Shown: positions 2,155 to 59,682 of the stretch, in pieces
Layout: the number at the start of each line of letters is the position of its first letter
Numbering within the stretch: position 1 is the first letter of the stretch
NCBI GenBank assembly: GCA_903894565.1
Contig: CAITQP010000011.1
Span: forward strand, 70,515-134,514
Direction: 5' to 3'
DNA: 64,000 nucleotides
From: an uncultured bacterium
GTDB lineage: Bacteria; Patescibacteriota; Minisyncoccia; Phycocordibacterales; UBA9973
Notes under the pieces: model-generated
What the model was told of the DNA's origin: nothing
The model's input: only the letters and a program-made list of their open reading frames with translations
Databases searched by the model: none
Made by a program: the position numbers and the translations under genes

Positions 2155-3585
2155 ATGGAAAAACACTACTATCCGACCATTGGTCTTGAAATTCACGCCG
2201 AACTTCGCACGAACTCAAAAATGTTCTGTGGTTGTAAAAACGACCCTGACGAGACCAAGCCAAACGTGAATATTTGTCCGATTTGTATGGCGCATCCGGG
2301 AGCAATTCCCGTGCCAAACAAACGCGCGATTGAGCAAGTCATCCGCGTTGGTCTTTCAATTGATGGAACAATTGCAGACTTCACCGAATTTGATCGCAAA
2401 AATTATTTTTATCCAGACATTCCAAAAGGCTATCAAATTTCTCAATACAAATATCCGATTGTCTCTGGCGGAAGTCTGGCTGACATGAAAGTAACTCGTA
2501 TTCACCTTGAGGAAGATACTGCGACGAGTAAACATGACCGAGGCGACTTTTCATTGATTGATTTCAATCGTGGGGGTGTGCCACTCATGGAGCTCGTAAC
2601 TGACGCTCAAACATTCGACGATATCGAAACTGCTGCAAAAACTGGCGGAGATTTTGGTCGCGAATACCAACTTCTTTTGCAGTATCTTGGTGCTTCGTAC
2701 GCCAACATGGAAAAAGGTGAGATGCGTGTAGAAGCAAACATTTCAATTTCGCCTGACCAAAAAGTCTGGGGCACAAAAGTTGAAGTAAAAAATCTTAACT
2801 CATTCAAGAGTGTCGAGCGTGCTATCCGCTACGAACTCAATCGCATGCGTGATTTGTACGAAGAAGGACGACAAGGGGAGATCGTTCAAGAAACACGTGG
2901 TTGGGATGAAATGAAGGGCAGCACATTTAGTCAGCGCGCAAAAGAATCCGCAGCTGATTATCGATATTTTCCGGATCCAGATATTCCAAAATTAAAATTG
3001 ACGGAGCTTTTTGACATGGATGCGCTCAAGATCGCACTTCCCGAGCTTCCTGTGGCAAAACGTGCGCGATATAAGAAAGATTACGGAATCAAGGATGAGG
3101 ATATCGAACGATACGTGAATGATTTTGAACTCGCTGTTTGGTTTGAGGAAGTGATCAAAGCATTGAATGATTCTGAGAAAATAAAAGTTGCATCAAACTA
3201 TACGACATCTGACTTGCTTGGAATTCTGAAAAATGATTCTGAGGCAAAAAAGCCATCACCGAAAAATTTTGCGGAGCTTGTCGCTCTCGTGACTGAAGGC
3301 AAAGTATCTTCACGTGCAGCAAAAGATATTCTTGCAATGATTGTAAAAGTTGACGGCTCGCCGAATGCGCTCGCCGAACAGCATGGTCTTATTCAGAAAA
3401 ACGATGAAGGTGCACTCAAAGCAATAGCTCAAAAAATCATCGAAGCAAATCCTAAAGTTGTCGCTGATTACAAATCTGGCAAGGAAGCTGCAATCATGAG
3501 CTTGGTTGGACAAATGATGAAAGAAACCAAAGGAAGCGCGAACCCCGCAATCGCATTAAAATTAATAAAAGAGCTTGTCGCGTAG
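2155..3585 (+). CDS. gatB: Asp-tRNA(Asn)/Glu-tRNA(Gln) amidotransferase subunit B
   Basis: MEKHYYPTIGLEIHAEL... N-terminus and full-length GatB/YqeY architecture. Start moved to the ATG at 2155, just after the mltG stop. Confidence 0.9.
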   Translation: MEKHYYPTIGLEIHAELRTNSKMFCGCKNDPDETKPNVNICPICMAHPGAIPVPNKRAIEQVIRVGLSIDGTIADFTEFDRKNYFYPDIPKGYQISQYKYPIVSGGSLADMKVTRIHLEEDTATSKHDRGDFSLIDFNRGGVPLMELVTDAQTFDDIETAAKTGGDFGREYQLLLQYLGASYANMEKGEMRVEANISISPDQKVWGTKVEVKNLNSFKSVERAIRYELNRMRDLYEEGRQGEIVQETRGWDEMKGSTFSQRAKESAADYRYFPDPDIPKLKLTELFDMDALKIALPELPVAKRARYKKDYGIKDEDIERYVNDFELAVWFEEVIKALNDSEKIKVASNYTTSDLLGILKNDSEAKKPSPKNFAELVALVTEGKVSSRAAKDILAMIVKVDGSPNALAEQHGLIQKNDEGALKAIAQKIIEANPKVVADYKSGKEAAIMSLVGQMMKETKGSANPAIALKLIKELVA

Positions 3586-3590
3586 CTAGA

Positions 3591-3687
3591 AAATGTACTC
3601 GGGAAAGGACTCGCGGAGCGCGACGGCGCGAGCGTGAGGCGAAAATCCTTCAGGATTTTACGCTGGTCCTTTCATGAGTACACTTTT
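3591..3687. repeat. structured palindromic repeat element, copy A (71-nt conserved core 3603-3673 inside an outer terminator-like hairpin)
   Basis: Core GAAAGGAC...GTCCTTTC is 67/71 identical to 7680-7750. Internal stems CTCGCG/CGCGAG and GCGAAAATCC-TTCA-GGATTTTaCGC. Outer stem TGTACTC/GAGTACA followed by a T-run. Confidence 0.7.
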
Positions 3688-3727
3688 CTTGCTACGCGCC
3701 ACGATCTTGTAGTATAGTGACAAAATT

Positions 3728-4825
3728 ATGGCAAATAAGGATTTTTATAATATTCTCGGCGTCTCGAAAGAGGCCTCAAAAGACGAAATCAAAAAGGCTT
3801 TTCATAAGCTCGCTCATAAATATCACCCTGACAAAAATAAAGGGGATGATTCTAAATTCAAAGAAGTGAATGAGGCATACCAGACACTTTCTGATGACGG
3901 AAAACGTGCCGAATACGATAGATTTGGATCAGAAGGACCGCAAGGATTTGGCGGACAGGGCGGATTCCAAGGTGGATTCAACCAAGGTGGTTTCGAAGGA
4001 TTTGATTTTTCCGGATTCCAAAACGGACAAGGTTTTGATATGGGAGATCTCGGCGATATTTTTGGTGAGTTTTTTGGTGGCGGACGCGGTGGCAATCAGC
4101 CACGACGCGGACGCGACATCTCAACAGAAATTACAATTCCATTTGCTGACAGTATTTTTGGAACCGTACGCAAAATTTTGATTACCAAAACATCGACTTG
4201 TGATACCTGTAATGGCTCTGGAGCAAAACAAGGAAGCAAGTCGGTAAGTTGTTCACAATGTAACGGCAAAGGACAAGTGCGCGAAACACGTCGCTCGATT
4301 CTCGGACCAGTCACAACAACTCGCGTGTGTGACGTGTGTGCCGGAGCTGGAACTGTGCCACAAGAAATGTGTGCAACATGTAAAGGCGCGGGCGTGCACC
4401 GCAAAGAAGAAGAAATTGAAATCCGTGTCCCCGCAGGAATTGAACCAGGCGAGATGATTCGTCTAACAGGCATGGGTGAAGCTGTGCGCAAAGGTGCATC
4501 AGGAGATTTGTACGTGAAGATCAATGTACAATCTCACCCAACATTCCGTCGAGATCGTATCAACTTGCTCATGGACATGGAAGTGAAACTCTCAGAGGCT
4601 ATTCTCGGCGCTGAGCGCGTCGTAGAGACACTTGATGGCTCGGTGACTATAAAGATACCGGAAGGCATCGCAAGTGGCACTCAGCTTCGCGTCAAAGAGC
4701 GTGGCGTGCCAGCAGGCAAAAGTCGCCGAGGAGATCTCATGATCAAAGTCACGGTCAAAATCCCAACAAAACTTTCCCGCAAGGCAAAAGAGGCTGTGGA
4801 ATTACTTCAGGACGAGGGGCTATAA
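3728..4825 (+). CDS. dnaJ: molecular chaperone DnaJ
   Basis: J-domain with HPD, G/F-rich linker, four CxxCxGxG zinc-finger repeats, C-terminal domain. Confidence 0.92.
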
Positions 4826-4864
4826 AAATTACCTCGTTGTTAGCGAAGTAATTTAGTTTTTTTC
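4825..4864 (+). terminator. intrinsic terminator after dnaJ
   Basis: Hairpin AAATTACCTCG-loop-CGAAGTAATTT followed by AGTTTTTTT. Confidence 0.55.
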
Positions 4865-5213
4865 GTCATCGCTATGTGAGCGATGTTGTTTGTTTGCATT
4901 TTGTGCACTCGAATATCGGAGTGATTGTACCAAGAGATGTGAGCGGTGAGTCTGGTATTACATACCAGCGCTTTTTTCCGTTGCAAACAGGTGACGTACA
5001 CGATATGAAAACCCGTGACTTTGTATGTTTTCTCATAGAAGACTTGTTTAAAATAATTTTTTATTAGTAAACCATCGTCGTCGTGTAAGGTAAACAAATG
5101 CAAAAATGTGGATAACTCGGGTTGACCTATTTACATTCTCGACGTAGATGCTATTATTTGCGCATTAAAAAAATAAGCAAAAAAGAGACCTCCATATCTA
5201 TATTTAACGAGAA

Positions 5214-6587
5214 ATGAAACCAACCTCATCCAAAAAACTTTGGAAAATCGGCATGAAGGAATACAACACCCAGTATTTCGACTTCAATAAAGACGGTGAC
5301 CTTATTATCAAAGAGGGCCACAACATTTATAATGTTCGCTATCTTGCGGAGAAGATGGGTACTCCACTTCAGATTCTTATGCCGTTTGTTATTGAGGAGC
5401 GCCTCGAGGACTTTCTAGACTTGAACAAGGAACTTGCCAAGAAGATTGGTTATCACGGAAAGTTTTTTTATCATTACCCAATGAAGGTGAATCAGAACAA
5501 GGAGGTCATCATGGCCCTTGTTGGTGATGGTGCTCATCTTGAGACATCTTCGTACAACGACCTCTATCTCATCAAAAAGATGCTTGATGCGGAAACATTC
5601 AATCCAAATATCCGTATTCTTTGTAATGGACCAAAGACAGACAAATATCTCAACCTTATCGATGAACTTCAGCACAAGGGCACAAAAGTCTTTCCGCTTA
5701 TTGAAGGACCGAACGAACTCAAAGTGCTTCAGCACTCACGTTACGATGTAGGTATTCGTCTTGCCATGAAAGTGAAGGTGAATTCTCGTTGGAACAAGCC
5801 AATCGATCGTTTTGGATTTCCTGCAGAAGAAATTCTTGCTATGGACAAGTTTAAGAACTTGAAAATTTTGCACTACCATATCGGTGGACAGATCGAGACG
5901 ATCAATGACATGCTTCCTCCGATCAAGTATGCATTGAATGTGTACTTTAAATTGAAGGAAAAGAATCCATCGCTCGACACACTTGATATTGGAGGTGGAA
6001 TGCCGATTCCGTTTACTCGCACCAAGACTTACTCCATTGAGAAGCTCATGGAAAAAATCTTTGAACTTTTGAAGAGCGAAGCTGACAAACGTGGCGTCCC
6101 TCACCCAAACCTTATTTGTGAGTGGGGAAGTTACATGGTGTATCCAGCTCAGATCACAATTTACAAAGTGAGTGATACAAAGAAAATCAACGACAAGAAA
6201 GCTGAGGGAAAGAAATGGTATGTCATTGACGGAAGCTTCATGAACGATCTGTGTGATACATGGGCGATTGGTCAAAAATGGGCAATGGCACCAGCTAATA
6301 ACAAGAACGACAAGAACTTGAATGAAGTCTGGCTTGCTGGTTCTACTTGTGATTCTGACGATACGTACAAAGGCATAAATGGCTCGGTAACGTTACCTGA
6401 CTATGATTTTGATACGCAGGATCCAATGTACATTGTGATATTCGATACAGGAGGCTACCAAGCATCACTCTCTATGAAGCACTGCCTATTGTCTGCTCCA
6501 CTTAAGATTATTGCCGAGAATGGACACATCGTCGTCGCTCGCAAACGTGAAAGTCCAGAGGACGTTGGTCAAAAGTTCGGTTGGTAA
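5214..6587 (+). CDS. PLP-dependent Orn/Arg/DAP decarboxylase family 2 enzyme, likely arginine decarboxylase by context
   Basis: PLP-lysine motif YPMKVNQNKEVIMALVGDG and LDIGGGMP motif. Followed by DHS-like gene, with agmatinase convergent downstream. Confidence 0.7.
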   Translation: MKPTSSKKLWKIGMKEYNTQYFDFNKDGDLIIKEGHNIYNVRYLAEKMGTPLQILMPFVIEERLEDFLDLNKELAKKIGYHGKFFYHYPMKVNQNKEVIMALVGDGAHLETSSYNDLYLIKKMLDAETFNPNIRILCNGPKTDKYLNLIDELQHKGTKVFPLIEGPNELKVLQHSRYDVGIRLAMKVKVNSRWNKPIDRFGFPAEEILAMDKFKNLKILHYHIGGQIETINDMLPPIKYALNVYFKLKEKNPSLDTLDIGGGMPIPFTRTKTYSIEKLMEKIFELLKSEADKRGVPHPNLICEWGSYMVYPAQITIYKVSDTKKINDKKAEGKKWYVIDGSFMNDLCDTWAIGQKWAMAPANNKNDKNLNEVWLAGSTCDSDDTYKGINGSVTLPDYDFDTQDPMYIVIFDTGGYQASLSMKHCLLSAPLKIIAENGHIVVARKRESPEDVGQKFGW

Positions 6588-6612
6588 ATTATTATTTGAT
6601 ATACTTATTCTC

Positions 6613-7632
6613 ATGAACAACAATCTTCCAACATTCGAATTTATTCTAAAGAATTACAAGAACTTCAACGCACGAGCACTTCGTGACGCAACTCTCGCGT
6701 ACTGGGATCACACCCAAAAAGGTGGAAAGATGTTCTGGGCTGTCGCCGGAGCTATGAGTTCTGCTCAGCTCGGTATCGTGCTTGCTCCTGCCATTCGAGC
6801 AGGTCTCATTTCGGGCATGTCTGTCACGGGCGCAAACCTTGAGGAATCATTGTTCCGTTTGGTAGCGCATGATCACTACAAGGATTTTCCAGATTATCGT
6901 TATTTCACGAAAGAAGACGATACCAAGATTCTTGAGAATCGCATGCGTCGCGTGACGGACACTTCGATTCCTGAGGACGAAGCGTTCCGCGTGGTTGAAA
7001 AACAAATCGTGCCTACGTGGAAGAAGGCTACAGAAGACAAGACTCGTCGTTTCTGGCACGAATATTTTTACGAACTTATTCAGCAAGTTGATCCAAAAGA
7101 CTATCAAGGTGACGTGAATGAGTGCTGGTTGCTCGCAGCAGCGCAAGCGAATATTCCAATCGTTGTTCCAGGATACGAAGACTCAACATTTGGAAATATT
7201 TTCGCAGGTCATGTGTATCATAATGATTGCACCGCATCAATCGTCAAAAGTGGCGTTGAATACATGGCTGCGTTTTATGAGCAGTACCAGAAGATGTCTG
7301 AAGGTGCAGGTGTCGGATTCTTCCAGATTGGAGGAGGTATCGCCGGAGATTTTCCAATTTGTGTTGTTCCTTCCCTTAAGTATGACGTTGAAGTCAAAGA
7401 GGTGAAGCCATGGGCATACTTCTGTCAGATTTCAGACTCGACTACTTCATACGGATCATATTCGGGTGCTACTCCAAACGAGAAAATCACTTGGGACAAG
7501 CTCACCAAAGACACTCCGATGTTTGTCGTTGAATCAGACGCGACTATCGTCGCTCCACTTATGCTCACTGCGCTTCTCGAAGCAAAAGCAAACCCTGACG
7601 CAGCAAATGCTTTAATCAAACAGTACGCGTAG
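6613..7632 (+). CDS. deoxyhypusine synthase-like protein
   Basis: QIGGGIAGDF and SYSGATPNEKITWDKL resemble the DHS NAD-binding and active-site-lysine region. Start trimmed to ATG 6613 (MNNNLPTFEF). Confidence 0.65.
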   Translation: MNNNLPTFEFILKNYKNFNARALRDATLAYWDHTQKGGKMFWAVAGAMSSAQLGIVLAPAIRAGLISGMSVTGANLEESLFRLVAHDHYKDFPDYRYFTKEDDTKILENRMRRVTDTSIPEDEAFRVVEKQIVPTWKKATEDKTRRFWHEYFYELIQQVDPKDYQGDVNECWLLAAAQANIPIVVPGYEDSTFGNIFAGHVYHNDCTASIVKSGVEYMAAFYEQYQKMSEGAGVGFFQIGGGIAGDFPICVVPSLKYDVEVKEVKPWAYFCQISDSTTSYGSYSGATPNEKITWDKLTKDTPMFVVESDATIVAPLMLTALLEAKANPDAANALIKQYA

Positions 7633-7660
7633 AGAAATAACCACAGAGGTACAGAAGCCG

Positions 7661-7770
7661 AAAAAAATAAAACACCCCCGAAAGGACTCGCGGAGCGCGA
7701 CGGCGCGAGCGTGAGGCGAAATTTCTTCAGAAATTTACGCTGGTCCTTTCGGGGGTGTTTTATTTTTTTC
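7661..7770. repeat. structured palindromic repeat element, copy B (core 7680-7750) inside a bidirectional terminator hairpin
   Basis: Outer stem AAAACACCCCC/GGGGGTGTTTT with A-tract and T-tract flanks. The core differs from copy A by two compensatory base pairs (AAATTTC-TTCA-GAAATTT). Confidence 0.7.
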
Positions 7771-7781
7771 GGCCACCGTAA

Positions 7782-8684
7782 TTATTTGAGCTTCTTTTTT
7801 GCTTCGAGGAGACGCTTCTTGTAGAACGTGTTGATCATGTTGTATACAATCTGTGCTGCTCCATATTCGGTAAGTACGTTATCGGAGACAGGGGAGACTT
7901 CGACGACATCGGCACCGACGAGTGTCTTTTTCTCGATGACTTTCTCGAGGAGCTTCAATGTATACCACCATTCGAGGCCACCTTGCACTGGTGTACCAGT
8001 ACCAGGCATATATGCTGGGTCAATACCATCAACGTCAATTGAGATATATACCTTTTTTGTGTTGATAGCGGAGACAACTTTGGCAATACTTGGAATTTTT
8101 TCACCATTCCATTCAAAAGTTTTGATATTTTTGAACGAAGAGAAATAATCTGATTCTTCCTTTGAATATGCGCGAATACCAACTTGTACAAGATTGAATC
8201 CGATTTCGTGTGCTCGACGCATGACAGCTGAGTGAGCATACTCAGTTGGGTCAGTATCATTGTAGTCACTATCGTCCTTGCGGAGATCACAGTGAGCATC
8301 AATTTGGAAAATCGTAATATCTTTTGGATTCTCTTTCTTCGCAAGCGCTTTGAGCGCACCAAAACTCATGGAATGTTCGCCACCGAGGAGGAGAGTGAGG
8401 GGCGCGACACTCTCAGAACACATTTTGACGACAGCTGCATGCGCTTCGTCTGGAGCCATCTTTGCAAGGCCTGGGATCTCTGTGTGAGCGATTTTGATGT
8501 AGTCAGTCGACTCGATACCATATCGCTTGTCCCAGAATTCGATCTGAGTATTCAAACATTCAACAACTTTTTTTGGACCGAGGGCGGTACCTTTGTGAAA
8601 TGATGCAGTCGCATCATACGGAGCACTGATAATATGCGCGTCAGCGACCTTCGGGTCTTTTGTATTAATGATTGATTGTGGCAT
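7782..8684 (-). CDS. speB: agmatinase / arginase-family ureohydrolase
   Basis: GGEHS, DAHCDL, SIDVDGIDPAYMPGTGTPVQGGL manganese-binding motifs. Confidence 0.8.
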   Translation of the reverse strand: MPQSIINTKDPKVADAHIISAPYDATASFHKGTALGPKKVVECLNTQIEFWDKRYGIESTDYIKIAHTEIPGLAKMAPDEAHAAVVKMCSESVAPLTLLLGGEHSMSFGALKALAKKENPKDITIFQIDAHCDLRKDDSDYNDTDPTEYAHSAVMRRAHEIGFNLVQVGIRAYSKEESDYFSSFKNIKTFEWNGEKIPSIAKVVSAINTKKVYISIDVDGIDPAYMPGTGTPVQGGLEWWYTLKLLEKVIEKKTLVGADVVEVSPVSDNVLTEYGAAQIVYNMINTFYKKRLLEAKKKLK

Positions 8685-14066: not shown

Positions 14067-14070
14067 TAAA

Positions 14071-14115
14071 AGACAACAAAAAACACAGAGGTAACTCTGT
14101 GTTTTTTGTTGTCTT
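14071..14115. terminator. bidirectional intrinsic terminator (perfect 20-bp-arm palindrome)
   Basis: AGACAACAAAAAACACAGAG-gtaac-CTCTGTGTTTTTTGTTGTCT, between the convergent histidine-kinase and cysS genes. Confidence 0.7.
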
Positions 14116-18269: not shown

Positions 18270-18312
18270 AAAACAAAAAACACTCTGAAATTCTCAGAGT
18301 GTTTTTTGTTGT
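18270..18312. terminator. bidirectional intrinsic terminator (long palindrome)
   Basis: AACAAAAAACACTCTGAG-aaatt-CTCAGAGTGTTTTTTGTT. Shares its AAAAAACAC/GTGTTTTTTGTTGTC flanks with the terminator at 14071. Confidence 0.7.
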
Positions 18313-41087: not shown

Positions 41088-41100
41088 TATTCACCAAAGG

Positions 41101-41138
41101 AAATAAAATGGCCGCGCGTACGCGCGGCCATTTTATTT
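41101..41138. terminator. bidirectional intrinsic terminator
   Basis: AAATAAAATGGCCGCGCG-ta-CGCGCGGCCATTTTATTT. Confidence 0.6.
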
Positions 41139-41173
41139 CCTTTTTATTTCAAACTGAAATATACTAAAACAAC

Positions 41174-52444: not shown

Positions 52445-52506
52445 AAAAACGCCTCACTTATTTTCTGATCAGGTCACCTGATGAAAAAATAAGTGAGGCG
52501 TTTTTT
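52445..52506. terminator. bidirectional terminator, 62-nt nested perfect hairpin
   Basis: Outer stem AAAAACGCCTCACTTATTTT/AAAATAAGTGAGGCGTTTTT. Inner ATCAGGT-c-ACCTGAT. Confidence 0.7.
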
Positions 52507-58307: not shown

Positions 58308-59351
58308 CTATATTTTTTCCCACGGAGCACCGCTATGAATAAAATGTCCGTGTGCTGCAACATTTTTGTACACTGCATTTCGGAGTCCAAGTTTTTCAAT
58401 AATTGCTTTTGGCGCGAAATCAAATCGTCCTTGTATTACACTTGAAATATCTTCGCCATTTTCATTGGTGACTGTTAGCATTACAGGTTCTGCTACACCG
58501 ATAGCGTACGCGACAGAGACGAGCGCTTCTTTTGCTACTCCTTCGCGCACAAGTGCTTTTGCAACAAAGCGCGCCATGTAGGCAGCAGAGCGATCTACTT
58601 TGGTCGCATCTTTACCACTGAAACACCCACCGCCGTGCGGAATAATTCCCCCGTACGTATCAACCATGATCTTTCTTCCGGTGAGTCCTGTGTCAGCATC
58701 AAATCCACCAATCGTGAACATGCCACTTGGATTAATAATCACTCTCGCCGTTTGAAGCGTGTCGCCGAAAATTGGTTTGAGTACGACTTCACGAATTCCA
58801 TTTTCGATCTCCGTATGCGTTACTTGTTCGGTGTGCTGTACACTCACCACAATCGTATCGACGACATCATCTACCATCGTGATCTGAGTTTTGCCATCAG
58901 GAAGAAGCCACGGAAGACGCGCACTGGTTTCTGGTTTGTCGAGCAATTCGACGATACGTGCAGCATACACAACACCGCGCGGAAGCATCTCAGGAGTTTC
59001 GTTCGTAGCGAATCCGTACATGATCCCTTGATCCCCCGCTCCATCATGATTCACCCCTTCCGCAATCTCTGGTGACTGCTTCACAATCTGCGTGCGAATT
59101 TCGATGTCGCTCGTGAATCCAATCGAGCGATACACATCACGCGCAATGCTCTCGACATCGACATATGCAGTCGAAGTAATCTCGCCACCGAGTGTGAGCA
59201 GTCCATGCGCTCCAAATGCCTCAATCGCAACACGTGCAAATGGATCTTGTGCAAGATGTGCATCAAGAATTGCATCTGAAATTTGATCGCACACTTTGTC
59301 AGGGTGACCGCGACGAACATTTTCGACTGTGTATTTTTTTGGTATATACAT
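58308..59351 (-). CDS. metK: S-adenosylmethionine synthetase
   Basis: MYIPKKYTVENVRRGHPDKVCDQISDAILDA, GGGAFSGKD, full-length match. The upstream 52 codons of the track ORF are riboswitch, not coding. Confidence 0.9.
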   Translation of the reverse strand: MYIPKKYTVENVRRGHPDKVCDQISDAILDAHLAQDPFARVAIEAFGAHGLLTLGGEITSTAYVDVESIARDVYRSIGFTSDIEIRTQIVKQSPEIAEGVNHDGAGDQGIMYGFATNETPEMLPRGVVYAARIVELLDKPETSARLPWLLPDGKTQITMVDDVVDTIVVSVQHTEQVTHTEIENGIREVVLKPIFGDTLQTARVIINPSGMFTIGGFDADTGLTGRKIMVDTYGGIIPHGGGCFSGKDATKVDRSAAYMARFVAKALVREGVAKEALVSVAYAIGVAEPVMLTVTNENGEDISSVIQGRFDFAPKAIIEKLGLRNAVYKNVAAHGHFIHSGAPWEKI

Positions 59352-59370
59352 AAAGTTTAATAACAAATAG

Positions 59371-59510
59371 TAAGGAGAAGAATAAAAAAAATACTCTTCA
59401 CCCGACAGGTAAGAGTACGACGTGTATCTTCCTTTCGGAATTTGGATGAAGCACCTTGCACTCGGGTAGGTTGCTGGTGGGTCATTGAGCCAAATCTCTC
59501 GCCACACTCT
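59371..59510 (-). promoter_or_regulatory. SAM-I (S-box) riboswitch with intrinsic terminator, leader of metK
   Basis: Minus-strand sequence UGUAUCAAGAGUGUGGCGAGAGAUUUGGCUCAAUGACCCACCAGCAACC...AAGGUGCUUCAUCC..UUCCGAAAGGAAGAUACA matches the SAM-I P1-P4 core. It is followed by the UACUCUU/AAGAGUA hairpin plus U9. Confidence 0.75.
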
Positions 59511-59682
59511 TGATACAAACGATATTCAGTTGTATTGACACATTACCAGAACTCTCCTAAAAAAGCAAAAGCCCGACGCAGATAGGCTACGTCGGGACTC
59601 TTACTTTTTGTCGACCACTTATACATGTATTATACCTATATGTCTATACGATATCAAGCAAGCAGACTGTGGATTTTGTTTT

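Follow-up and report, generated by a model that had tools for sequence, protein, structure and literature searches.

The window examined here, a 64,000-nucleotide stretch of DNA, contains two long intergenic hairpins with unrelated stems that are tipped by almost the same branched fold, which raises the question of what this shared fold is and why it has been kept. In agreement with an earlier note on this DNA, we found two 71-nucleotide copies that are identical at 67 of 71 positions, here termed E1 and E2 (Table 1). Also as claimed, the four differing bases form two compensated pairs, both in the seven-base-pair hairpin 2: E positions 43/54 change from A-T in E1 (3645/3656) to T-A in E2 (7722/7733), and positions 45/52 from C-G (3647/3654) to T-A (7724/7731). 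RNAfold gives an identical three-way structure for both copies, consisting of an eight-base-pair closing stem (P1, GAAAGGAC/GTCCTTTC), hairpin 1 and hairpin 2. The folding z-scores are -4.3 and -3.8 for the cores; including the outer stems lowers them to -6.1 and -11.5. A 39-mer common to E1 and E2 occurs twice in the window versus zero times expected from 100 shuffles, and these are the only two copies of element E in the 64 kb searched. The sequence CGTC is present in E solely as the hairpin 1 loop read on the reverse strand.

Table 1. Positions of element E and its outer stems in the window
Feature	Positions	Strand	Description
E1 (71 nt)	3603-3673	+	P1, hairpin 1, hairpin 2; covariance-model hits 80.8 and 87.4 bits
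E1 closing stem P1	3603-3610/3666-3673
E1 hairpin 1	3611-3637		apex GCGC-GACG-GCGC at 3618-3629
E1 hairpin 2	3639-3664
E2 (71 nt)	7680-7750	+	covariance-model hit; two compensated pairs differ from E1
E2 P1	7680-7687/7743-7750
E2 hairpin 1	7688-7714
E2 hairpin 2	7716-7741
Locus 1 outer stem, 5' arm	3569-3602	+	spans last gatB codons and stop (3583-3585)
Locus 1 5' arm, inner 7 bp	3594-3600		TGTACTC, then GG linker 3601-3602
Locus 1 outer stem, 3' arm	3674-3708	+	AT linker, GAGTACA 3676-3682, T-tract, inverted copy of gatB end
Locus 2 outer stem, 5' arm	7657-7679	+	GCCGAAAAAAATAAAACACCCCC, A-tract, inverted repeat
Locus 2 outer stem, 3' arm	7751-7773	+	GGGGGTGTTTTATTTTTTTCGGC, T-tract, inverted repeat

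The outer stems indeed share no sequence relationship: locus 1 has TGTACTC/GAGTACA, in a stem that reaches about 29 base pairs, and locus 2 has GCCGAAAAAAATAAAACACCCCC and its complement. Both contain A- and T-tracts. E1 lies between gatB and dnaJ, and E2 between a deoxyhypusine-synthase-family gene and a convergent arginase-family gene, as first described. The hairpin at locus 1 comprises 140 nucleotides with 29 outer pairs (-72.6 kcal/mol). The end of gatB, stop codon included, is copied inverted in its 3' arm, and the -35-like TTGCTA (3689-3694) of a predicted dnaJ promoter sits within this same arm. A GTAG near E is a coincidence arising from the gatB stop codon. At locus 2 the arms pair into a bidirectional terminator-like hairpin between the convergent genes. 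Direct reading and folding place a G+C-rich hairpin directly before a U-tract at both window copies, which a consensus terminator scanner does not call because the loop, a 71-nucleotide three-way junction, is too long. The description of the outer stems as terminator hairpins thus holds for the two window copies; it does not extend to several members of the wider family described below, which have long stems without U-tracts (L019, L025 and L032, and L021 in the gene direction). A further proposal, that E was inserted into the loops of pre-existing terminators, fails at locus 1. Most other relatives are without E, and in these the spacer between gatB and dnaJ is 13-38 nucleotides long with no hairpin.

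We compared three sister species, represented by the window, the MAG ELA106 (L003), and the GROS21 metagenomes (L004). Their coding DNA is 87-90% identical, and their third codon positions 63-72%. E is present at both orthologous sites in all of them with 64-71 of 71 bases identical (71/71 and 70/71 for E1 in L003 and L004, respectively, and 70/71 and 64/71 for E2), and the flanks of E2 are merely 68-80% identical. Within this clade every change in E is compensatory or improves pairing, with the single exception of a base in the hairpin 2 loop (TTCA/TTCG). E is inherited at orthologous sites and evolves far more slowly than neutral DNA. This conservation of the whole element beyond neutral sites is stronger evidence of selection than covariation.

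The orientation of E differs among the three sister species at both loci. At locus 1 the arrangement CTC-GG-E-AT-GAG is replaced by CTC-AT-E'-CC-GAG, where the linker bases have turned with E. Because adjacent stem bases flip along with it, E was inverted in place, and this occurred without sequence loss. The flip of E1 is safe from mis-assembly because just seven perfect base pairs surround it; E2 is a spacer between perfect 23-nucleotide inverted repeats whose orientation could in principle be mis-assembled. At least one copying event has also brought E to a second hairpin close by, and conversion has given E2 of L004 a hairpin 2 of the E1 type. Among the matches listed, the six GROS21 contigs (L004-L009, each from another sample) share one orientation; seven further similar places lie beyond this listing. 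Neither these contigs nor the window, which has no recombinase gene, give support to a programmed invertible switch (inverton).

E is not confined to these species. A homologue in L012/L013, located by synteny rather than by pattern, is about 60% identical, follows the same gene, and retains a homologous outer stem; its three-way fold is unchanged, and GCGCGACGGCGC...GTGAG is identical. A metagenome scan yielded seven further members of the family in other Patescibacteria, on contigs of 33-49% GC. Each caps a different outer stem, 25-34 base pairs long in six and about 10 base pairs in L018, and the complete hairpin structures of the family are near-perfect palindromes of 124-205 nucleotides. 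Two 29-nucleotide variants of hairpin 1 are each common to contigs of differing GC content. The genes adjoining family members are gatB/dnaJ, DHS/arginase, grpE/dnaK, polA/holA, SLT/rpmE, RNase/LOG, a T4CP-like gene and comEC. The earlier note had considered that only two copies might exist and that relatives might lack them; with both loci in the sister species and seven more members found, E is instead part of a previously undescribed family of conserved three-armed folds capping long intergenic hairpins in Patescibacteria, tiny-genome CPR bacteria of the Paceibacteria type.

Covariation was tested over 12 members of the family. Paired cells make up 92.6% versus 81% in shuffles, and the covariation score is 0.341 versus 0.131; none of 500 shuffles reached either observed value, and the score beats those of all slid registers. 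The covariation reported for the variable stem is upheld by this larger set, where five of the seven pairs in hairpin 2 have changed on both sides. The register given for the second internal stem (CTCGCG/CGCGAG), in contrast, is not backed by the comparative data. The P2 register pairs C10-G32, N11-N31 and C12-G30 and lies below a GGA/GA internal loop; its covarying pair E11-E31 is G-C in six sequences and U-A in five. P1 also changes by covariation across the family (GGGGC/GUACCC, AGGC/GCCU and others), and so behaves more like a stem than like a conserved end.

The inference in the earlier note that covariation argues for selection on structure is insufficient by itself, because template-switch mutation mechanically produces multi-base compensatory changes and loop inversions (PMC8794818, PMC8604942). 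The regions around E bear signs of such a process. The 3' arm at locus 1 mirrors the end of gatB, and the two covary between species (GCGTAG/CTACGC versus AGCTAG/CTAGCT); at locus 2 the outer stem changes from CCTCC/GGAGG to CCCCC/GGGGG. Perfect palindromes with a spacer of 0-1 nucleotides are found elsewhere in the window. If E were a functionless palindrome, made and maintained purely by template switching, then the compensatory changes, the homogenised arms, the extension of the stem into gatB and the loop inversions would all be covered (PMC8794818, PMC8604942). However, template switching cannot preserve unpaired bases or the non-palindromic order of two different hairpins, nor can it keep an identical hairpin 1 apex across lineages of 33-49% GC, and we regard this neutral account, which the constraint among sister species disfavours, as highly improbable. 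Template switching accounts for what happens around E but leaves E itself unexplained.

The alternative offered at the outset, a conserved and strand-specific structured RNA of the 3' UTR, is hard to reconcile with flips that leave the sequence intact in sister species. If E were such an RNA, either a 3'-UTR or intercistronic regulatory element or an sRNA processed from the long stem, most lineages would display its functional strand, and the flipped window copies would be recent and non-functional. The three-way junction does show covariation and conserved junction and loop bases, and the long stem may be akin to an RNase III processing stalk. In addition, outside the window clade E has one orientation, antisense to co-directional flanking genes at 5/5 loci and to the one visible neighbouring gene at two further loci. 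Yet the strand that folds better, with purine-rich loops, is this antisense strand, and E1 is 70/71 identical despite its 'wrong' orientation in the window and L004, where a dead copy should decay. The gene association is inconsistent, and a search of Rfam 15 with the window and 11 related loci gave no match at E at or above the gathering threshold (the best sub-threshold match is RAGATH-32, with 18.8 bits versus the 41.8 required). We consider a strand-specific RNA very unlikely, and rejected assignment to the strand-specific cis-regulatory RNAs, despite the covariation, since orientation varies among sister species and no class of genes is consistently associated.

A site acting at the level of DNA would be indifferent to strand. 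Here E would form a hairpin or cruciform, and a chromosomal protein with a part in replication, recombination, segregation or topology would recognise it on either strand; any RNA function would be irrelevant. This would suit a sequence that is kept whatever its orientation relative to transcription, that is present in low copy number among unrelated housekeeping genes, that has conserved unpaired bases, and that belongs to a near-perfect palindrome of 124-205 nucleotides that could extrude. The covariation shows intra-strand pairing and cannot separate DNA from RNA. Against such a site, no candidate protein is known, the positions follow no logic (the GC skew of the window is weak), and the bias in orientation relative to genes outside the window clade would be needless for a symmetric DNA site. 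We judge it to be quite unlikely.

A serious rival, although in our view an unlikely one, holds E to be selfish DNA: a small, non-autonomous repeat of the REP, ERIC or MITE sort, copied by an enzyme that is encoded elsewhere in the genome or arrives horizontally. Hairpin tips would be preferred or tolerated because insertion there is harmless. E1 was copied recently from E2 and occupies a place that is free of the element in relatives; the distribution is patchy and the loci vary by lineage; and both hairpin 1 variants span contigs of different GC content. P1 resembles 8-base-pair terminal inverted repeats, present in the window clade as GAAAGGAC/GTCCTTTC, and the conversion of hairpin 2 in L004 also suits a repeat. 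Moreover, ERIC sequences are likewise highly conserved while their location and orientation vary. The MITE-like behaviour originally suggested is not borne out, however. The flanks contain no direct target-site duplication and no constant target, and are instead mutually complementary (GG/AT at E1, C/G at E2, and purine-rich linkers in others), and P1 covaries across the family, which would not be expected of a conserved end bound by a transposase. The copy number is extremely low in the sequence searched: no further copies were found elsewhere in about 300 kb of related loci, and a scan of 185,579 GTDB species genomes for exact window-type ends gave one match. Among about 66 ORFs of the window there is no transposase, integrase, HUH domain, Y1 transposase or recombinase, and searches of viral contigs, phages and plasmids gave no copies of E. 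Because the neighbouring stem bases turn together with E, the flips are not re-insertions. Finally, with two copies, selection for transposition cannot explain the 64-71/71 identity of orthologous copies across three species.

We tentatively favour, at somewhat less than an even chance, the reading of E as a low-copy, cis-acting structural cap that is kept by host selection while template switching builds, homogenises and flips its stem, and not as an actively proliferating transposon. Template switching during replication would create, extend, homogenise and flip a locus-specific outer stem around the very stable E fold. Upon transcription, hairpins 1 and 2 and P1 would be the first to fold, which would nucleate the long outer stem and let it close. 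Judging from their anatomy, the E hairpins at the window sites with A- and U-tracts are predicted to serve gatB and the converging DHS-like and arginase-family genes as very stable bidirectional intrinsic terminators, and possibly as barriers to 3' exonucleases. A hypothetical protein could recognise E by the invariant apex of hairpin 1 (GCGC-GACG-GCGC, on an internal loop rich in purines) and by those unpaired bases that are conserved.

Several observations count against the cap reading. A plain hairpin would terminate equally well, so the conservation of 71 nucleotides including unpaired bases is left unaccounted for. A DNA-level site explains conservation in both orientations no less well than a role in RNA does, and the antisense placement outside the window clade is not predicted by a structural cap. 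In several family members U-tracts are absent. The patchy distribution in close relatives, with loci that differ between lineages, is a pattern of mobile DNA. We consider it possible, though doubtful, that E is a recognition module of a new kind, maintained by the host at the tip of a long stem that E itself generates, read in either orientation by a hypothetical Patescibacterial protein, and not selfish DNA. If so, E would represent a class of cis-element or structured RNA that is new and has no Rfam entry, and a natural case of a functional fold that seeds a template-switch-driven palindrome around itself.

Other small structured repeats share features with E. Correia/NEMIS, BOX and RUP elements, Rickettsia palindromic elements and the GC clusters of yeast mitochondria are G+C-richer than their host genomes and intergenic in small or A+T-rich genomes, and some are cleaved or act as terminators once transcribed. 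Unlike E, every one of these exists in many copies, and recognisable ends or target duplications mark most of them; to our knowledge none has been described as a conserved cap in unrelated long stems. ERIC elements occur in tens to hundreds of copies and have terminal inverted repeats with TA duplications. The ERIC/IRU elements of enterobacteria are mentioned in PMC3733652 and PMC3116915. Like E, they are imperfect palindromes of about 70-130 nucleotides in transcribed intergenic regions that form long RNA hairpins. However, they are not nested in locus-specific outer stems, and E folds as a three-way junction, is present twice per 64 kb without a duplication and occurs in Patescibacteria.

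REP elements are palindromes of 20-40 base pairs, one end of which carries an unpaired tag, either GTAG or CGTC (PMC3733652). REP, BIME and REPIN sequences are present in high copy number, are linked to a RAYT gene, and have been proposed as terminators or mRNA stabilisers (PMC3733652, PMC3116915, PMC3337134). E resembles them as a vertically persistent, hairpin-forming extragenic palindrome located downstream of genes, between co-directional or convergent ORFs (PMC3733652, PMC3116915, PMC3337134). We rejected membership in REP/REPIN because E is 71 nucleotides long, branched and of low copy number in the sequence searched, and the window has no RAYT/Y1 transposase gene. The window copies share with intrinsic terminators an A-tract, a G+C-rich stem and a T-tract, and a position at gene ends or between convergent genes. 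In contrast, their loop is a 71-nucleotide three-way junction rather than 3-8 nucleotides, and several family members are without U-tracts.

The behaviour of E is also like that of minute hairpin-loop inversions and template-switch mutations, where a spacer between short inverted repeats flips among close relatives (PMC8794818, PMC8604942; in plastids, PMC9653739), arms are homogenised, compensatory changes arise simultaneously, and stems are lengthened by reverse-complement copying. However, the known inversions involve short loops, and the 'loop' that flips here is a strongly conserved, self-folded module of 71 nucleotides.

Two copies of a 71-nt element lie in the window, and their anatomy is as the earlier note had read it. 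The copies are identical at 67 of 71 positions, and the four differences (element positions 43/54 and 45/52) amount to two pairs, each compensated, within a hairpin of 7 bp. The two copies share one fold, a three-way junction made up of P1 (a closing stem of 8 bp), hairpin 1, whose apex is GCGC-GACG-GCGC, and hairpin 2. The family is characterized by a conserved core reading GGAGCGCGACGGCGCGAG...GTGAG, after which comes a variable A/U hairpin. Each copy is nested in a long outer stem with A- and T-tracts, and the sequences of the two stems are unrelated. The first copy (E1) with its surroundings (100 nt) has a folding energy of -47 kcal/mol and the second (E2) with its surroundings (121 nt) one of -77 kcal/mol; no shuffled sequence folded as well as either. 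A 39-mer common to both copies occurs twice in the window against zero expected occurrences, and the 64 kb hold these two copies only. The independently assembled Logan contig ERR4193932_305894 (4049 nt), whose DnaJ is identical to that of the window, starts inside E1 and ends inside E2. Its assembly graph was thus broken at the element, an independent indication that the sequence is repeated in that genome.

Features of the window and of related loci
Feature	Sequence	Coordinates	Strand	Remark
E1	window	3603-3673	+	between gatB and dnaJ
E2	window	7680-7750	+	between deoxyhypusine-synthase-family gene and convergent arginase-family gene
Match to Logan contig	window	3638-7686		contig L001
dnaJ	window	3728-4825		chaperone/protease neighbour
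Polyamine-type cluster	window	5214-8684		conserved
Palindromic hairpin	window	14070-14115
Palindromic hairpin	window	18272-18310
Palindromic hairpin	window	41096-41143
Palindromic hairpin	window	52445-52505
metK ORF	window	58308-59507	-	mechanical call
SAM riboswitch (RF00162)	window	59421-59519	-	48.7 bits; directly upstream of S-adenosylmethionine synthetase gene
ABC-transporter ATPase ORF	L018	122-1000	+	stop codon within element
Element	L018	965-1037
Extra hairpin	L020	8041-8160		nested in hairpin 2 loop
Element	L021	1433-1505		chaperone/protease neighbours grpE/dnaK
Element	L025	6144-6216		upstream of LOG-lon (chaperone/protease neighbour)
G+C-richer non-coding sequence	L038	7100-7460		DHS-like/arginase-family spacer
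gatB-dnaJ spacer	L040	1095-1230

Named homologues of the window's proteins come from Candidatus Nomurabacteria and unclassified MAGs, and the lineage belongs to the Patescibacteria (CPR). We fetched orthologous loci via the deoxyhypusine-synthase (DHS)-like protein and found the element inherited at both orthologous sites in two sister lineages, the MAG ELA106 (L002/L003) and a population (L004-L009) that recurs in many GROS21 metagenomes. Coding DNA of the window is 87-90% identical to theirs and third codon positions 63-72%; the three are separate species-level lineages. Relative to the window, E1 is conserved at 71/71 positions in L003 and 70/71 in L004, and E2 at 70/71 and 64/71, whereas the non-coding flanks of E2 match at only 32/47 and 22/32 positions in L003 and at 36/45 and 21/32 in L004. 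About 20 differences would be expected in a neutral 71-mer. Almost all changes within the element are compensated pairs, wobble-to-Watson-Crick replacements or extensions of pairing, the sole exception being a base in the hairpin 2 loop (TTCA/TTCG). Because the changes are so few and mostly keep the pairing, the whole element, unpaired bases included, must be strongly constrained. A neutral palindrome is very unlikely, since template switching has no means of preserving bases that are not paired, or the succession of two unlike hairpins. The earlier note had named a recent duplication as the reading to adopt if there were only two copies and relatives lacked the element; the sister lineages carry it, and seven more members occur in other contigs.

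These further members were found in one metagenome scan, using as a pattern the bases common to the window and L012, a diverged homologue. The scan returned 21 loci, comprising 14 chance matches in G+C-rich coding DNA and seven true members on contigs of 33-49% GC. All seven share P1, a purine-rich internal loop or its paired equivalent, an invariant apex on hairpin 1, GUGAG at the junction, and an A/U-rich hairpin 2 of variable sequence. The outer stem is different in each, with 25-34 base pairs in six members and about 10 in L018, and whole hairpins of the family measure 124-205 nt. With regard to which strand folds, mismatches in the outer arms are G-T in 20 cases and A-C in 9, in data that are non-independent and noisy at distal pairs. 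Among 12 aligned sequences, five of the seven hairpin 2 pairs have changed on both sides and the central P2 pair (element positions 11 and 31) alternates between G-C and U-A. Paired cells reach 92.6% as against 81% in shuffles, none of 500 of which attains the observed value, and slid registers are all far worse than the chosen structure. These elements of CPR bacteria, structured and conserved, make up a new family that had not been annotated before and that is unusual in how its members nest and flip.

The genes flanking the element across the family are unrelated housekeeping genes. In the new members it lies between hrcA-grpE and dnaK, polA and holA, a transglycosylase gene and rpmE, a beta-CASP RNase gene and LOG-lon, or an ABC ATPase gene and ybeY, and otherwise beside a coupling-protein-like gene or comEC. 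This want of a theme, together with an orientation that varies in the window clade, makes a strand-specific riboswitch-like RNA unlikely. Outside that clade, the strand bearing GGAGCGCGACGGCGCGAG is antisense to both neighbours at each of the five loci whose flanking genes are co-directional (L012, L019, L021, L025 and L032) and to the single visible neighbour at L020 and L030, a small sample; the antisense-lying strand is the better-folding one and has purine-rich loops. Read along the direction of transcription, several hairpins of the family lack a U-tract, and the term terminator is therefore not apt for the family as a whole.

Several individual loci carry features of their own. In L020 a very G+C-rich hairpin of about 50 nt is nested in the hairpin 2 loop as a second level of nesting. 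The ATPase ORF of L018 ends within the element, so that its last 12 or so codons are element sequence, and the outer stem there is degenerate. Chaperone or protease genes adjoin three of about nine independent loci, as noticed post hoc, and no CIRCE-like operator is present. The metK ORF call in the window overruns the SAM riboswitch, and the true start codon must therefore lie further downstream.

The element is sparsely distributed. It is absent between grpE and dnaK in the nearest retrievable relatives of L021 (59-68% GrpE identity), which indicates a patchy distribution; the flip and conservation comparisons cover the window clade. No further copies occur in about 300 kb of the window and related loci. 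When 185,579 species genomes were scanned for the exact window-type ends, the sole match was E1 of ELA106. Rfam was searched with the window and with 11 loci, both at the gathering threshold and by E-value, and gave only sub-threshold chance matches to microRNAs and RAGATH-32. Two scans of viral contigs yielded nothing real; seven viral 18-mer matches lie in coding DNA of G+C-rich phages and score at most 24 bits, compared with 58-89 for true members. BLAST against phage records and plasmids gave no matches to the element. On inspection against the consensus sequences, we found none of the defining features of hammerhead, twister or other small ribozymes, k-turns, sarcin-ricin motifs, group II intron domain V, SRP RNA, CIRCE/HAIR heat-shock operators, integron attC sites or IS200/IS605 ends. 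GC skew in the window is weak, and the position of the element relative to the replication terminus cannot be read from it.

Both copies are forward in the window and both are reverse in L003, while L004-L009 have E1 forward and E2 reverse. The flip at the gatB-dnaJ spacer (locus 1) took two linker bases along on each side, turning CTC-GG-E-AT-GAG into CTC-AT-E'-CC-GAG (E', the flipped element), which places the breakpoints inside the outer stem. The spacer between the inverted repeats was thus inverted in situ and was not excised and inserted anew. The flip of E1 is secure because only seven perfect pairs adjoin it; the orientation of E2 is to be read with the caveat that an assembler could mis-orient a spacer whose arms are perfect over 23 nt. 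Orientation agrees in all six of the retrieved GROS21 contigs, which come from different samples, and so gives no hint of switching within the population. A site acting at the DNA level would best account for such orientation-independence; lacking any candidate reader, it seems to us an improbable explanation.

The earlier note had proposed that the element was inserted into pre-existing terminator loops. Among relatives without the element (L011, L038 and the contig of P0003), the gatB-dnaJ spacer is only 13-38 nt long and has no hairpin, so the difference at locus 1 is the whole palindrome of about 110 nt rather than the 71-nt core alone. The 5' arm takes in the last gatB codons and the stop codon, and the 3' arm repeats these in inverted form. 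The arms covary between species, with GCGTAG/CTACGC in the window and AGCTAG/CTAGCT in L003, a change that alters the last GatB amino acid. In L040 the same spacer contains GTACTCGG, 15 nt and CGTTTTCTTGC, both sequences in common with the locus 1 arms; this likeness to the two arms minus the element could mean either an empty site or a remnant. The TTTTCTTGC part falls on the -35 region of the promoter predicted for dnaJ.

At the second locus, most relatives have ordinary short-loop terminators of unrelated sequence 3' of the DHS gene; these plain, non-homologous stems do not qualify as an empty site. L012 and L013 instead carry a much-diverged homologue of the element within a homologous outer stem (ACAACACCCC...), with the three-way fold of the window and identical GCGCGACGGCGC and GTGAG. 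Within the window clade, the stem beside the element has changed from CCTCC/GGAGG to CCCCC/GGGGG, and in L004 hairpin 2 of E2 has turned into the E1 sequence while other E2-specific bases were kept, a short gene-conversion tract. Taken together, these comparisons suggest that E2 is old and vertically inherited, that E1 is a later copy of it placed 4 kb away, and that both surrounding stems are dynamic. A composite transposon or island bounded by the two copies is ruled out, as dnaJ-ODC-DHS is syntenic in relatives without the element. The surrounding genes, of the ornithine/arginine-decarboxylase, deoxyhypusine-synthase and convergent arginase/agmatinase families, make up a polyamine-type cluster that is conserved. 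Across the retrieved relatives, identity is 88-98% for the deoxyhypusine-synthase-family protein, generally above that of DnaJ (68-94%) and GatB (72-97%). The DHS-like/arginase-family spacer itself is variable, with zero to three extra small genes depending on the relative; that of L038 holds about 350 nt of G+C-richer non-coding sequence that looks like a structured RNA gene and has no Rfam match.

Template switching, the copying of reverse complements during replication, is documented to create and extend stems, homogenise arms, produce multiple simultaneous compensatory changes and invert loops (PMC8794818, PMC8604942). Such a process would fit the stem growth, arm covariation, compensatory changes and loop flips at both loci. 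Other perfect palindromes in the window have spacers of 0-1 nt, which RNA folding does not need and template switching makes, in support of this mechanism. Long, perfect or near-perfect terminator-like hairpins are common in the window, with arms of 18-30 nt and spacers of 0-4 nt, and one is a 48-bp palindrome without a spacer. Perfection through the loop suggests that these hairpins arose by template switching and not by selection on RNA alone. The mechanism put forward in the earlier note, a MITE-like insertion into pre-existing terminator loops with covariation arguing for selection on structure, is only partly right, and the case cautions against taking covariation alone as proof of RNA function.

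We tentatively favor the view that the element is a low-copy structural cap kept by the host. The compact three-way junction would fold first and nucleate the long stem, and replication template switching around so stable a fold would have built the stem and would go on remodelling it. At both window sites this would yield a bidirectional terminator of great stability that also protects 3' ends. That the hairpin 1 apex is invariant and unpaired bases are conserved implies that some putative factor recognises the element. The comparisons establish that the element is conserved, inherited, duplicated and inverted in place and that its structure extends across the family, whereas a template-switch origin of the stems, a role as terminator or stabiliser and a protein partner are inferred. 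The main rival, a REP/ERIC-like selfish repeat mobilised in trans, would explain the patchy distribution and the new copy; we think it unlikely, though less so than a DNA-level site, since it leaves conservation at two copies unexplained and a signature of mobility is absent.

To our knowledge, almost no non-coding elements have been described in Patescibacteria, whose genomes are tiny and streamlined. The element is about 99% identical between lineages (at the lowest 64/71, for E2 in L004) beside synonymous sites that have diverged by about 30%, which points to an unrecognised interaction with a candidate partner protein or with the machinery of replication or transcription. The element withstands inversion and recurs across lineages atop unrelated long stems, and would constitute an unusually clear natural record of template switching in bacteria, in which stems are created, arms homogenised and loops flipped. 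A model of the family can now be built and used to search complete CPR genomes and metatranscriptomes.

Comparison with known systems sets the element apart. A classical MITE is rejected because there is no direct target duplication, the supposed terminal repeats covary as a helix does and copy number is minimal; none of the approximately 66 window ORFs encodes a transposase, integrase or HUH enzyme. Nor is it a REP, a class of high-copy palindromes of 20-40 bp that carry an unpaired GTAG/CGTC tag (PMC3733652). The small palindromic intergenic repeats of the ERIC/REP type are nonetheless its nearest kind, although it does not fit them on the features compared.
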